A stretch of DNA of 64,000 bases from Parcubacteria group bacterium Gr01-1014_38 (GTDB lineage: Bacteria > Patescibacteriota > Andersenbacteria > UBA10190 > CAIZMI01). Made by a program: the position numbers and the translations under genes. The DNA lies in NCBI GenBank assembly GCA_007376145.1, contig VMFP01000001.1, forward strand, positions 122,835 through 186,834. The letters are read 5' to 3'. The notes under the pieces are model-generated. The model did not search any database and had not been told where the DNA came from. It saw nothing but the letters and a program-made list of their open reading frames with translations. Below are positions 39,150-42,635 of this stretch, piece after piece. Each line of letters opens with the position of its first letter. The first letter of the stretch is position 1.

Positions 39150-39617
39150 TTACCGAATGCCGATCAAGCGTGCAAGATCCTGCCAGCCGCTTCCCCGCTC
39201 TTCCGACCGGAGGTTCTCGAGCGTGAGCGGCCGTACGATACGGATCGGAGCGGAGCCGCCTTCGGGTCGGTACGGATCCAGGTTCAGGAGGTGGCGGTCG
39301 TTGGTAATCACCGCATCTGCTTTTCCCTCCACCGCAGCCGCGAGGACCTTGTCGTCCTCGGGGTCATCCTGAACGACGTGGGGCACCGTCGCCGGGTGAA
39401 CCGTTTCCGCCGCAGCGAGAAACGCGCGAATCTGTTCCTCGTGCCCACGGACGTTCACGGTCTTGGAAAGGATTTCCTCGTACTCACCCCGCAGCGCCGG
39501 GCTCACGATCGCGGTGAGCTCTTCCCGCATACAGGCCTCCACAATCTTCCACGAGGCGGAGAGTTCATCATACGCGCTGCTCACGAGCACGTTGGTGTCC
39601 AGGACAACCCGTTTCAT
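39150..39617 (-). CDS. PIN-domain protein (putative toxin, TIGR00305-like)
   Basis: MKRVVLDTNVLVS ... ITNDRH: conserved acidic residues of the PIN fold; 155 aa; 4-nt overlap with upstream small ORF. Confidence 0.75.
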   Translation of the reverse strand: MKRVVLDTNVLVSSAYDELSASWKIVEACMREELTAIVSPALRGEYEEILSKTVNVRGHEEQIRAFLAAAETVHPATVPHVVQDDPEDDKVLAAAVEGKADAVITNDRHLLNLDPYRPEGGSAPIRIVRPLTLENLRSEERGSGWQDLARLIGIR

Positions 39618-39621
39618 GCCA
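39524..39621. repeat. direct repeat R1 (~98 bp, ~90% identical to R2 at 42538-42635) spanning the PIN gene 5' end and start codon
   Basis: cccgcatacaggcctccacaatcttccacgaggcggagagttcatcatacgcgctgctcacgagcacgtt... aligned by eye to the 42.5 kb copy with ~10 mismatches. Confidence 0.7.
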
Positions 39622-39883
39622 TGGAAAATTTCCCTTCAACAACTTCCTTCGTCAGTGCTTCGATGACGCGCGGCATGTCGGTGTCGGGAATTGTACCATC
39701 CGTGGACAGCGCATCCGCTTCCGCGAATGCCAAAGTACCCGTGGGAGCGAATCTCCGTGTCGGGATGAGGAACGCGCGGTTCGGCATCGTGACGGGTCCG
39801 GCGGACGCCGATAGCCAGGACATGGCTGTATCTCCACGCAGTCTCGGGAAGAACAAAGCACCAACGCATTCCACGATTTCCAC
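39614..39883 (-). CDS. small ORF overlapping PIN gene start (putative cognate antitoxin/partner; start uncertain)
   Basis: ATGA overlap with the PIN gene; C-terminus ...RVIEALTKEVVEGKFSMA; a diverged copy of this C-terminus (...VVVREGVLVEEEFAVA) precedes the PIN fragment at 42.6 kb. Confidence 0.4.
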   Translation of the reverse strand: MEIVECVGALFFPRLRGDTAMSWLSASAGPVTMPNRAFLIPTRRFAPTGTLAFAEADALSTDGTIPDTDMPRVIEALTKEVVEGKFSMA

Positions 39884-40087
39884 CCATCCTAACCTCGCCG
39901 CCGGGCTGCTTCAAGGAAAAAGAGACGAGAAAAAAGGCGAGCATCCGTACGGTCGGTACACAGATCACAGTCACAAAAAAGCCCCGCGACAGTATACGTG
40001 TCAACGGGGCACTAAAGTGCAGTTTTACCATAGAAACATCATGCTCGTGGAAGAAAGTTCGCCAACCCATGCAAGTGTCCTTCACCG

Positions 40088-40528
40088 CTAATCAAACTTC
40101 TCCTTCAGAATCTCCACGGGCCTGCCTTCGTGTTTCGAGACGACCTCGTTGATTTTCTGGTAGAAGGCATCCGATTCCAAGTACAGCATCCCCCACTCGG
40201 TGGCCAGGTTGGTTGGCTCCGGGGAGAACTTTGCTTTGAAGCGCTTTTCCTCGGCAGGGAAGAAGAACCATACCACGGCGACGTCAGGAAAGGCAGGATG
40301 CACATCCTTCCATGTCTCCCTCACCTTCACCGTCGAGATGATGTCTTTCACCTGCTTGGGATCGGAGATGACCAGGGATTTCGGTTGCTGGTTGATGTGA
40401 TAGTCGATCTTGAGCTTGTTCGCCTGTCGTAGATCGGGTAGTTCCGGCTTCTTAAGACAGCCGGGGACCAAGAACAGAGCGAACAATGAACCAATCGCCA
40501 GGGAACCTCGTGGTAAACTACATGCCAT
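40088..40528 (-). CDS. hypothetical lipoprotein (146 aa), lower GC
   Basis: Signal peptide with lipobox LVPGC; Lys-rich; local GC ~50%. Confidence 0.55.
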   Translation of the reverse strand: MACSLPRGSLAIGSLFALFLVPGCLKKPELPDLRQANKLKIDYHINQQPKSLVISDPKQVKDIISTVKVRETWKDVHPAFPDVAVVWFFFPAEEKRFKAKFSPEPTNLATEWGMLYLESDAFYQKINEVVSKHEGRPVEILKEKFD

Positions 40529-40549
40529 AGAGACCTCCTTTTACTTGGT

Positions 40550-42427
40550 TTAGTCGGGTCTTCCGTTCGTGCTGACGCGCAGTCGGGCACCGCGAGGGAC
40601 TCCGACCCAGCCAGCGTGACCACGATCCGGCGCGATACTATAGACACACTCGGTATACCCTCGCACCTTCGCCGTGACCGTCGCGTTGCTCAGGAGCATG
40701 GACAGAAGATGCAAGTAATTGTCTGGACGATCGATGCCGGACGAAATATGACAACCCATCAGGCTGAGTGTATCAATCTTGCCGCGCAGGAGTTCGCCAA
40801 ACGCCGAAGCCTCATGGAGCGGGTTCTGCCGAAGACAACGATTTTCGCCTGCTCGGTTACACAGCCTGTTGCCAGCACCGACATGCTGCGCATCGGCACT
40901 GCCATGTCCATAGATCCACACATGTAACGGGCTGCCGCGGTAGTAGTCACGCACCGTCTGGATGGCAGCGGGGATGGAGGCAACAAGCATTGTATAACTA
41001 GCAAGCCGGCGGGATCTCATAATCGCAAGATCAGTGTCGTGAGTGGCGTCCCGATACTCTGGAGGTGGGTTTTCGATCAGGATCAGCGTGGTATTGGCCG
41101 CAGTTGGGTGTACAGCCGCAACGAATTTTTCCGTCTGGCCTTGGCCTTGTCCCGCATCAGCCGGCGGGCTGGCAACATTGATGAAGAAGGTGCGCGTTTC
41201 GCCTCCCCTAAACGCGACCTGCACCCCATACACGCCTGGCCGACGAGCCAGAAAGTATACTTCAGAACAGTTCTCTGCCTCGTAACAATCACCGTCGGGA
41301 TCGTCGGGATGACGGTTCAAGCGAAAGAAGCCATCGTAGTCCCAATCCGGGTCCGTGATGGACTGTTGAGCGCGGTATGGGTCGCTCTCCCCCCGAGGAT
41401 CAGGTGCCACGATCCGCAGCTCTTCCATCCTTTGGGGATACGATTCGTAGTACCATCCCCCCTCGCCCATGAAAGCCATCGGGTGCTCGGCCAGCTCTGG
41501 CCCTTCCCAGCTCGTGTCCGCGTCAGTGTCGTATAGCGTCACCGTTCGATCATAGACGAGCCCGTTGTACGCCGGATCCTCACTGACCGTTGTGTGTCGA
41601 AGGGTGCCGGTGTGTATGAACGGCTCATTACGGAAGTCTCTGCATCCCCTGACGACGATCTCCTCACTGCCCTGCCACCAAGAGGCGTCGAAGAACAACC
41701 AGCTCTCACTCGGACAGACCTGATTGTCTGGCGATGTAATGAAAACCTCGACATTGGCGCTGGGCTGGCTGGTCAGTCCGACGTCATACACATTCCGAGG
41801 CCACCAGCTGTCAGGATCTCCTTCCTCACTGAATGACTCCGGCGCCTGGACACCGGTCGGATGGCGAGGAGTGATAACGAGGCCAGCCTCGCTAGCTCCT
41901 GTGCTGCCACTGGATGCGCTGACTGCCCCAGTGAGAGCCGTCACCGTATTATTCCAGTGGATTGCCAAGAGGAGCACAGATGCATACGTGCCTCCGCTAG
42001 AAGCTTCCAGCGCCGGTGTCGCGGCACCCCAGTGGCTACCACCGTTATCCAGGGTAGAGGCAGCGGGTGCAATGGCACGGGAGGGAGTACGAGCGACAGA
42101 AAGCCATGCTTCGCCGAAATCTCCGAAATCGCTGTTGACCGAAGGAAGCGATGGCTCATCGTCTACACTTTGAGCTGCTGGCCGGTCCTGGCTTTGCCGT
42201 GGCGGTTCCTCCGGGAAAAGTGACCACCATTTCTCATCCCGAGCCTCATCCTGCTGGTCTGCACCAGCGATACTGATTTCCATCGGCTCCTCAGTCAGCA
42301 AGCGAATCTGATCGGCTGTATGTGCTGCCCCGAAATCAGGCAGTGCAAGTGCAAGCAGATCGCCAGGTGGCAGGCGATCTTCCAGGGCTTCAACCCGGAA
42401 TACGGTACGTCTTTTGCCTTTGAGCAT
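40550..42427 (-). CDS. large hypothetical protein (625 aa) with possible C-terminal caspase-like His-Gly/Cys dyad
   Basis: Acidic Asp/Trp-rich central region; C-terminal VWIYGHGSADAQHV ... LSLMGCHISSG resembles the His-Gly ... Cys catalytic dyad spacing of caspase/CHAT/clostripain-fold peptidases. Unusual N-terminus MLKGKRRTVFRVEALEDRLPPGD. Confidence 0.5.
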   Translation of the reverse strand: MLKGKRRTVFRVEALEDRLPPGDLLALALPDFGAAHTADQIRLLTEEPMEISIAGADQQDEARDEKWWSLFPEEPPRQSQDRPAAQSVDDEPSLPSVNSDFGDFGEAWLSVARTPSRAIAPAASTLDNGGSHWGAATPALEASSGGTYASVLLLAIHWNNTVTALTGAVSASSGSTGASEAGLVITPRHPTGVQAPESFSEEGDPDSWWPRNVYDVGLTSQPSANVEVFITSPDNQVCPSESWLFFDASWWQGSEEIVVRGCRDFRNEPFIHTGTLRHTTVSEDPAYNGLVYDRTVTLYDTDADTSWEGPELAEHPMAFMGEGGWYYESYPQRMEELRIVAPDPRGESDPYRAQQSITDPDWDYDGFFRLNRHPDDPDGDCYEAENCSEVYFLARRPGVYGVQVAFRGGETRTFFINVASPPADAGQGQGQTEKFVAAVHPTAANTTLILIENPPPEYRDATHDTDLAIMRSRRLASYTMLVASIPAAIQTVRDYYRGSPLHVWIYGHGSADAQHVGAGNRLCNRAGENRCLRQNPLHEASAFGELLRGKIDTLSLMGCHISSGIDRPDNYLHLLSMLLSNATVTAKVRGYTECVYSIAPDRGHAGWVGVPRGARLRVSTNGRPD

Positions 42428-42517
42428 GCGAGTGCTCCTTTCAAAAAGAAAGAAAATTGTCTAAAGAGCTGGAAAAATACTACACGAAGCGAAATATAGA
42501 GAAAAAGAGGGCAACTG

Positions 42518-42631
42518 TCAAGCCTCCGGTCTCTCTCCCCGCATGCAGGCCCCCACAATCTTCCACGAGGCGGAGAGTTCATCATACGCGCTGCTCACCA
42601 GCACGTTCGTGTCGAGTACCACCCGGTTCAT
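42518..42631 (-). pseudogene. truncated PIN-gene remnant (38 codons: MNRVVLDTNVLVSSAYDELSASWKIVGAC...) within repeat R2
   Basis: Own translation of minus strand from ATG 42631; identical or near-identical to the first 28 residues of the intact PIN protein, then diverges and stops. Confidence 0.55.
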
Positions 42632-42635
42632 GCCA
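42538..42635. repeat. direct repeat R2 (partner of R1)
   Basis: See R1. Confidence 0.7.

Follow-up and report, generated by a model that had tools for sequence, protein, structure and literature searches.

Minimal mobile elements (MMEs) of Neisseria (Saunders & Snyder 2002) are cassettes that lie between two conserved genes and are swapped by homologous recombination (PMC3082526). Homology-facilitated illegitimate recombination (HFIR) has been reported for Acinetobacter, S. pneumoniae and P. stutzeri and for E. coli conjugation (PMC3240628). To this process have also been attributed the displaced gene ends in the effector-immunity arrays of the V. cholerae type VI secretion system (T6SS) and in the "orphan" arrays of Rhs and contact-dependent inhibition (CDI) systems (PMC5361080). 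The locus considered here lies in a stretch of 64,000 nucleotides, termed the window, from a metagenomic contig (VMFP01000001.1, positions 122,835 to 186,834) of Parcubacteria group bacterium Gr01-1014_38, an uncultured groundwater member of the candidate phyla radiation (CPR). In this window, the start of a PIN_3 gene is found twice, in direct orientation, on either side of an inserted cassette of two genes. With a probability of roughly 0.6, the repeat is read as an ordinary recombination scar at a gene-exchange hotspot, which one homologous crossover and one illegitimate joint would have left behind. The event is of a known kind, a homology-facilitated, MME-style acquisition, and neither a new class of element nor a duplicated toxin-antitoxin (TA) pair.

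The locus resembles the Neisseria MMEs in having two conserved flanks (an RnfD-like gene on one side, PIN and the 43x-aa gene on the other) that enclose differing whole-gene cassettes or an empty site. Moreover, the window cassette has no mobility gene, and divergence breakpoints lie in both flanks. Unlike a clean swap, which leaves no duplication, the event in the window produced an illegitimate joint and a 124-nt gene-start remnant, and its host is an uncultured CPR bacterium. As in HFIR, one end would have been formed by homology (inside PIN) and the other where homology is lacking, with microhomology of a few nucleotides at best, trapping foreign genes; in contrast to HFIR, the joint lies within the anchor gene, so that recipient sequence was duplicated rather than deleted. 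The T6SS and Rhs arrays share with the window an incoming module that anchors on a conserved gene part and displaces the resident fragment, a partial repeat that stays behind and the lack of an integrase. However, those arrays keep functional 3ʹ toxin tips and immunity genes, whereas the window keeps a 37-codon 5ʹ stub with no evident function, and its cargo is a putative surface-protein/lipoprotein pair. Integrase-borne islands, for which a tRNA, tmRNA or protein gene serves as the attachment site (attB), likewise show gene-end direct repeats around an insert of lower GC content and an intact target gene. Unlike them, the window has no integrase, its repeat is imperfect (87% identity) with allele differences that track lineages, and the sister lineage L084 has the cassette without the repeat.

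Because the mechanism is already known, the locus is of modest interest, as a clean example and not as a discovery. It provides a base-by-base case, with a datable scar, of an uncultured CPR genome gaining genes without dedicated mobility enzymes, and it shows a single intergenic site between two syntenic genes taking different DNA in different lineages. As a matter of speculation, the surface genes of the cargo could be important for host attachment of these episymbionts.

The duplicated gene start

A repeat search of the window returned one direct pair:

42533-42656, minus strand: repeat copy B, ~25 nt of PIN leader and PIN nt 1-99; apparently the displaced resident 5ʹ end
39519-39642, minus strand: repeat copy A, leader and PIN nt 1-99 of the intact gene

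The two copies are 124 nt long, 87% identical and spaced 3014 nt apart, and copy B was recovered with copy A as a blastn query against the window (E 1.6e-39). An earlier reading of this DNA from the letters alone, here called the original prediction, had described direct repeats of ~98 bp at ~90% identity, and these are borne out. Nine mismatches separate the copies across PIN nt 1-99 (91% identity), with nt 34-79 forming a perfect core of 46 nt, and PIN homology in copy B breaks off abruptly at nt 99 (42533). The short PIN remnant that had been noticed in the second copy also proved genuine: an open reading frame (ORF) of 37 aa and a stop codon (42518-42631, minus strand, MNRVVLDTNVLVSSAYDELSASWKIVGACMRGERPEA) matches the start of PF13470 (E 9e-4). 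Its stop codon falls in the -35 box of the cassette promoter. Less remains of the claim that a small partner ORF is present in diverged copies before both PIN starts. The likeness of the protein ends (...VEEEFAVA and ...VEGKFSMA) and of the ATGA overlap is there, but the tails are alike only over the last ~25-40 nt before the ATG, and the regions farther upstream are unalignable.

Terminal inverted repeats were absent from the insert ends in the repeat search, as were significant short repeats. A 9-mer common to the L084 left junction and the window right spacer (TCCCGAGAC) was tried as an attachment-site core and rejected, since a match of this kind arises by chance in 13% of shuffles. Rfam searches of 39000-43000 (E ≤ 1) and of the whole window (gathering thresholds) returned only one tRNA, at 5675-5746.

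States of the site in related Parcubacteria

PIN homologues at 64-90% identity were traced to their contigs, yielding nine related loci. In all of these, PIN lies between the RnfD-like and 43x-aa genes, with the zinc-finger and UvrD genes beyond. Between the RnfD-like gene and PIN, the nine loci show five different states:

L091 (PIN 76%), L093/94 (66%) and L095 (64%): empty, with an RnfD-like to PIN gap of 2-40 nt; no antitoxin gene
L087/88: four small genes, one of which has a HIT domain and extends across the PIN ATG
L089: IS1595 transposase before PIN
L092/L096: DDE_3 transposase of IS630 and part of a serine recombinase (truncated; PF07508, profile positions 5-73/102)
L084/85/86: the same cassette (626-aa and 146-aa genes); PIN remnant missing, left spacer unrelated (83 nt)

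This variety marks the RnfD-like/PIN junction as a hotspot of insertion and exchange. Judged from the same loci, the ancestral order is RnfD-like gene, PIN_3 gene and 43x-aa gene, with a short gap before PIN into which foreign DNA has come repeatedly. The segment between the repeats had been called foreign-looking, and rightly so: relatives differ exactly there, and three lineages have an empty site. A second PIN piece was found in the window only. Neither further remnants nor other joints at PIN nt 99 were found, and a degenerate PIN-core pattern run against JGI metagenomes added only L096, which is of L092 type. The left junction does not recur wherever the cassette occurs; in L084, L085 and L086 it is unrelated to that of the window.

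An ancient tandem duplication of a PIN toxin-antitoxin pair, in which the upstream copy decayed and the cassette was inserted between the two, would explain why there are two PIN starts in the same orientation, each after an ORF ending in ATGA. This explanation is already largely refuted and is very improbable. No relative has two PIN copies, and the ancestral state appears to be a single PIN right after the RnfD-like gene; no antitoxin is conserved; copy B is nearer to the L084 orthologue (96%) than to copy A (91%), the opposite of what is expected of old paralogues; and homology ends abruptly at nt 99. The original prediction had itself pointed out that ancient paralogy would show as an identical arrangement in all relatives, and only the window has a second PIN piece. 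Recombination between TA loci, which it had also offered, does not fit a region with only one PIN locus.

Allele mosaic and origin of the repeat

The intact gene and the DNA directly upstream of it are as follows:

39150-39617, minus strand: intact PIN_3 gene, 155 aa, chimeric; PF13470 6.6e-22, TIGR00305 2e-13
39618-39780, minus strand: upstream tail "X", 163 nt, near-identical to L092/L096; PIN leader and ribosome-binding site

Over PIN nt 1-99, copy B has 4/99 mismatches to L084 (0/20 at nt 80-99), compared with 9/99 to copy A and 13/99 to L092. The 163-nt tail, on the other side of the insert, differs from L092 at 7/163 positions and intact PIN nt 1-33 at 0/33, which together makes 7/196 (189/196 matching). 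Intact PIN nt 34-79 is identical to copy B (0/46 mismatches), and nt 80-209 shows 25-33/130 mismatches (19-25%) to every relative, so that no sampled lineage matches. From nt 210 to nt 468, PIN is of L084 type, with 7/259 mismatches versus 53/259 to L092, and the 434-aa gene that follows is 90-98% identical to L084 in 60-nt windows. In the left flank, identity of the RnfD-like gene to L084 amounts to 88-96% as far as ~42970 and falls to 67-79% over its last 180 nt, which are as distant from L084 as from the outgroup L091. Position ~42970 thus marks a putative recombination breakpoint on the left side of the hotspot, and either lineage could be the recombinant one. The block that diverges from L084 begins at this point in the RnfD-like gene, and identity is back to 97% from PIN nt 210, although both flank breakpoints are drawn from a few sequences. 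Since copy B and the 3ʹ part of PIN are both L084-like, they together reconstitute one resident allele, split by a block of other ancestry.

The left end of the insert is placed as follows:

42525-42534, minus strand: putative illegitimate joint; PIN homology stops at 42533 and L084-cassette homology is present by 42525 (blastn boundary)

The joint sits ~10 nt upstream of the cassette -35 box and reads ...GGGGAGAG followed directly by AGACCGGAGGCTTGACA in the window, versus ...CCCGAGACAGGCTTGACA in L084. Rightward, cassette homology to L084 ends at 39881 and is succeeded by 100 unique nt and the L092-like tail.

On the recombination-scar reading, the window lineage would have had an L084-like backbone into which a segment of ~3.1 kb was imported. 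This segment would have begun with the cassette promoter, followed by the genes for the 625-aa and 146-aa proteins and the terminator; after ~260 nt of tail, it would have ended in a foreign PIN allele, of which it included the first 100-210 nt. Its right end would have been set by homologous recombination inside PIN, between nt 100 and 210, and its left end by illegitimate joining to the resident PIN at nt 99, possibly via GAGAC microhomology. Copy B would be what was left, upstream, of the resident PIN start and its leader, and the imported start would have made PIN whole again as a chimera. A short conversion of its own may account for the L092-like patch. The repeat, the states of the site in relatives, the allele mosaic and the self-contained cassette are seen directly in the sequences; from them we infer the direction and order of these events, the uptake of linear DNA and the use of microhomology.

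Several lines of evidence lead to this reading. Relatives have an empty site or differing inserts at the same place, and copy B is an L084-type allele, closer to L084 than to copy A (4/99 vs 9/99). PIN nt 210-468 and the 434-aa gene are likewise of L084 type, the PIN 5ʹ part is foreign, and divergence breakpoints fall in both conserved flanks. The insert is a complete transcription unit with the left joint right at its promoter; it has neither recombinase, transposase nor terminal inverted repeat, and its GC content is low (0.564 vs 0.612). Furthermore, analogous displaced gene ends in the V. cholerae T6SS and in Rhs arrays have been ascribed to HFIR (PMC5361080).

Other observations weigh against it. 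An illegitimate joint inside the homologous anchor (nt 99), with the crossover farther downstream, yields a duplication and not the usual insertion-deletion. The GAGAC motif is weak evidence, since a 3-nt indel has to be granted before PIN nt 95-99 with its context and the upstream end of the L084 cassette have it in common. The donor must be mosaic itself, as it is L092-like only to PIN nt 33. In addition, the synonymous divergence (dS) of the cassette from L084 is 0.36-0.43, a modest excess over the RnfD-like gene (0.30). So small a difference and the divergent last 180 nt of the RnfD-like gene make a mirror-image event possible: the cassette could have been inherited vertically and copy B could have arrived from the left, in an event anchored in the RnfD-like gene. 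Finally, no close same-lineage genome without the insert was found, and an exact look-up of the RnfD-like protein gave only the same arrangement.

The 3014-nt spacing, the direct orientation and a 46-nt perfect core fit for homologous pairing would also suit a Campbell-type insertion, in which a circular DNA of 3,014 bp with ~124 nt of PIN homology entered by a single RecA crossover in the core, reversibly in principle. The k-mer graph of the Logan unitigs fits either pairing through the core. Such an insertion is nevertheless unlikely, because its donor would be L092-type at nt 1-33 yet L084-identical at nt 80-99, and its recipient would be L084-type at nt 1-33 and from nt 210 onward but, in between, unlike any sampled lineage at nt 80-209. 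An earlier illegitimate event would still be needed to connect PIN nt 99 with the cassette, and the MEGAHIT k139 contig crosses both cores in the integrated form. A Logan contig of 3028 nt (L003), nearly as long as the repeat spacing, was considered as a circle and dismissed, as it is merely the unitig between both 46-nt cores, with a geometric overlap of 14 nt.

It is quite improbable, too, that the 3,014-bp unit of cassette, tail and PIN 5ʹ stub is a functioning mobile cassette without an integrase. In that case, the unit would carry its own homology arm in the form of the captured, highly conserved first 100 nt of PIN, and RecA recombination between the 124-nt repeats would release a circle able to re-insert in PIN of related Parcubacteria. 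If true, a fast-evolving surface protein and its lipoprotein partner would be spreading among Parcubacteria in this way.

The inserted cassette

The 2890 nt between the repeats have a GC content of 0.564, versus 0.612 for the window (sd 0.027 in 3-kb windows), which places them at the 6th percentile. GC at third codon positions (GC3) is 0.60 in the 625-aa gene, compared with 0.71-0.79 in adjacent genes, so the lower GC first suspected for this segment holds by both measures. The cassette and the DNA beyond its terminator comprise the following:

42493-42521, minus strand: cassette promoter-like site TTGACA-17-TATATT, 11/12 matches; sole match in 4.1 kb
40550-42427, minus strand: 625-aa protein gene, cassette cargo; ORF with a full-length homologue (n=1)
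40088-40528, minus strand: 146-aa putative lipoprotein gene; hydrophobic N-terminus, LVPGC/LVPSC at Cys24
39975-40010, minus strand: terminator-like hairpin GCCCCG...CGGGGC, then U6; predicted fold that closes the cassette transcription unit
39881-39974, minus strand: post-terminator block, ~95% identical to L084; cassette homology ends at 39881
39781-39880, minus strand: 100-nt segment unique to the window lineage; unmatched in any fetched locus

L084 has kept the promoter-like sequence as well as the terminator stem and U-run, and the ATG of the 625-aa gene is preceded, at a distance of 8 nt, by an AAGGAG ribosome-binding site. A simple scan overlooked the terminator hairpin since its loop exceeds 8 nt. 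The cassette is a complete, self-contained transcription unit. Its post-terminator block (39881-39974) is ~95% identical to L084, while the coding genes are just 80-87% identical, and it contains small palindromes (CCGTACGG; CTCGCC...GGCGAG) with no Rfam match.

Pfam and NCBIfam scans revealed no recombinase or transposase gene between the repeats (39643-42532) or within 10 kb, confirming that an integrase is missing, as had been noted at the outset. Nor does the insert look like an insertion sequence or transposon, having no transposase and no terminal inverted repeats, and its duplication is 124 nt long and imperfect.

Site-specific integration had been named as the classic source of such gene-end duplications. 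In this scheme, a small integrative element with a surrogate PIN 5ʹ end beside a serine-recombinase gene would have entered the PIN 5ʹ part and later lost this recombinase by deletion, the repeats being its attachment sites attL and attR. Flanking direct repeats with a common core, as integrative elements need, do surround a self-contained insert of lower GC (124 nt, 87%, 46-nt identical core). In L092 and L096, moreover, a PF07508 fragment lies directly upstream of the same tail, and the tail and PIN nt 1-33 are 96-100% identical in the window and L092/L096, which suggests a transferable unit ending in PIN at the edge of the 46-nt core. The scheme is improbable all the same. The window has no recombinase; that of L092 is a truncated fragment beside IS630, and the tail does not continue its frame. 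The L084 cassette lacks an attL-like remnant, and a search for a second joint at PIN nt 99 found none. Furthermore, a crossover in the core predicts an element-type sequence at nt 80-99 of copy B, where the observed sequence is identical to the L084 backbone allele. To our knowledge, serine integrases neither need nor create repeats of 124 nt. With the cassette present in L084 without the repeat, and with no integrase, inverted repeats or recurring junction found, the classic label is not supported.

The recombinase fragments of L092 (1-1091) and L096 (1-1463) are truncated at both the N- and the C-terminus and abut the same 163-nt tail as in the window. The ORF overlapping the PIN start was considered as the C-terminus of the L092 serine recombinase and rejected, since it lies in another frame, the Pfam match ends at profile position 73/102, before the shared tail, and the tail lacks protein homologues.

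The sole full-length homologue of the 625-aa protein among 5.8 billion protein clusters is P0122 (68% identity), and the protein is thus known from two lineages. An exhaustive HMMER search with it gave 574 partial matches, essentially all at residues ~210-305. These residues are a single copy of a ~95-aa repeat from giant adhesin-like multi-repeat proteins, which, when the matches were scanned against Pfam, were found also to bear Calx-beta, Big_13, fn3_6 or beta-propeller domains. Relative to L084, the 625-aa gene has a ratio of nonsynonymous to synonymous divergence (dN/dS) of 0.56 (0.28-0.79 along its length), and the ORF is intact in both lineages. The protein has no Pfam, NCBIfam, PADLOC or PHROG match. 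Its C-terminal GHG...GC region is well conserved; a DUF4347-like assignment of this region was discarded, as Pfam had no match even at E 10, and a genuine DUF4347 protein reached only E 2.3 in BLASTP. An AlphaFold model from a 2-sequence alignment (pLDDT 28) was unusable. At its N-terminus, the protein has no classical signal peptide and carries a conserved RVEALEDRLPxGDLLALALPD motif, which resembles LEDRxLL, a motif at the N-terminus of large proteins secreted by Planctomycetes. LExR occurs within the first 80 residues in only 5/151 retrieved partial homologues.

The 146-aa protein is 83% identical to the L084 copy, with the lipobox-like Cys24 conserved and a dN/dS of 0.20. It had no family match in Pfam, NCBIfam or PADLOC, and PHROGs on the cassette proteins gave nothing meaningful. 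PADLOC, which the original prediction had proposed for both proteins, likewise produced nothing meaningful. A surface or host-contact role of the pair is a reasonable guess.

Elsewhere in the window, GC is also low at ~22200-24800 (3-kb minimum 0.516 at ~22.1 kb) and in an ORF at 13139-14449 (GC 0.53, GC3 0.55). By eye, the ORFs at ~22200-24800 are FGE-sulfatase-like, short-chain dehydrogenase and NUDIX. Both patches may be further acquired segments.

The PIN_3 gene and its upstream tail

By its matches to PF13470 and TIGR00305, both above cutoffs, the intact gene qualifies as a PIN-domain toxin gene. An adjacent, co-conserved antitoxin of recognizable family is absent. The only candidate is the ORF that overlaps its start:

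39614-39823, minus strand: so-called partner ORF; overlaps tail X

Searches of Pfam, NCBIfam, PADLOC and PHROGs with the partner ORF were negative; apart from its own entry, the 5.8 billion protein clusters yielded a single match, a 39-aa ORF from L096. L091, L093 and L095, in which PIN directly adjoins the RnfD-like gene, lack the partner ORF, and in L084 it is unalignable. Because it is not a recognizable antitoxin, the TA label fails on its defining feature. Moreover, the position of PIN between the RnfD-like and 43x-aa genes in all traced loci identifies it as a syntenic resident and not a mobile TA toxin, so that the original description of a PIN-toxin module or TA locus does not hold. 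For annotation, the lesson is that a PIN_3 gene with an overlapping upstream ORF need not be a TA module.

The length of tail kept before PIN is at least 163 nt in the window and L092, ~90 nt in L089 and L090, ~40 nt in L084 and ~25 nt in copy B, with none in L091, L093 and L095. Substitutions between the window and L089 tails are distributed over the codon positions as 17/5/15. This avoidance of second positions suggests that the tail is probably the relic of an old ORF, stepwise truncated by later insertions. As these sequences have it, the PIN leader and ribosome-binding region is what always survives of it.

Gene order and soundness of the assembly

The genes of the region share the minus strand and are transcribed in the order SecA, the RnfD-like gene, a spacer, copy B, the promoter, the 625-aa gene, the 146-aa gene, the hairpin, ~360 nt of non-coding or relic DNA, PIN_3 and the 434-aa gene, which is separated from PIN by 67 nt. 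Beyond it lie a zinc-finger protein gene and then a UvrD/PD-(D/E)XK helicase gene. The flanking features are:

46366-43715, minus strand: SecA gene
42792-43544, minus strand: RnfD/NQR2-like membrane protein gene (PF03116 1e-11); conserved left flank, syntenic in L084, L087, L091, L093 and L095
42657-42791, minus strand: lineage-specific 135-nt spacer "b", from the RnfD-like stop to the remnant; unmatched in any related locus
37778-39082, minus strand: 434-aa coiled-coil/SLT-like protein gene; conserved right flank, syntenic in all relatives

The same arrangement is found in a 245-kb MEGAHIT k139 contig, in the metagenome-assembled genome Gr01-1014_38 at NCBI and in Logan unitigs, three concordant assemblies that may stem from identical reads. 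The Logan graph (k=31) is ambiguous through the 46-nt core, whereas the MEGAHIT k of 139 exceeds the core length, and one unbranched Logan unitig spans every internal joint, from core copy to core copy. An assembly artefact is unlikely. As for a chimera of co-occurring L084-type and L092-type strains in particular, both allele types do occur in the same or related samples (ERZ27245926, JGI 3300021357) and the window is metagenomic. However, the agreement of the three assemblies, the unbranched unitig and the length of k relative to the core make such a chimera barely credible, and PIN nt 80-209 and the spacers match neither strain.

The best match of SecA (43715-46366) among 185,579 GTDB species representatives has 55% identity, and the lineage thus has no close representative genome in that collection. 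Several relatives have an ORF of 75-83 aa between PIN and the 43x-aa gene (L087 3783-4034, L088 762-1013, L091 5952-6179) that is without counterpart in the window; that of L087 (3783-4034) has no Pfam match. The zinc-finger gene (37161-37706, plus strand) encodes two tandem CxxC-x17-CxxC treble-clef zinc fingers (PF23477 1e-33) and is kept beside the 43x-aa gene in several relatives (L087, L090, L095).

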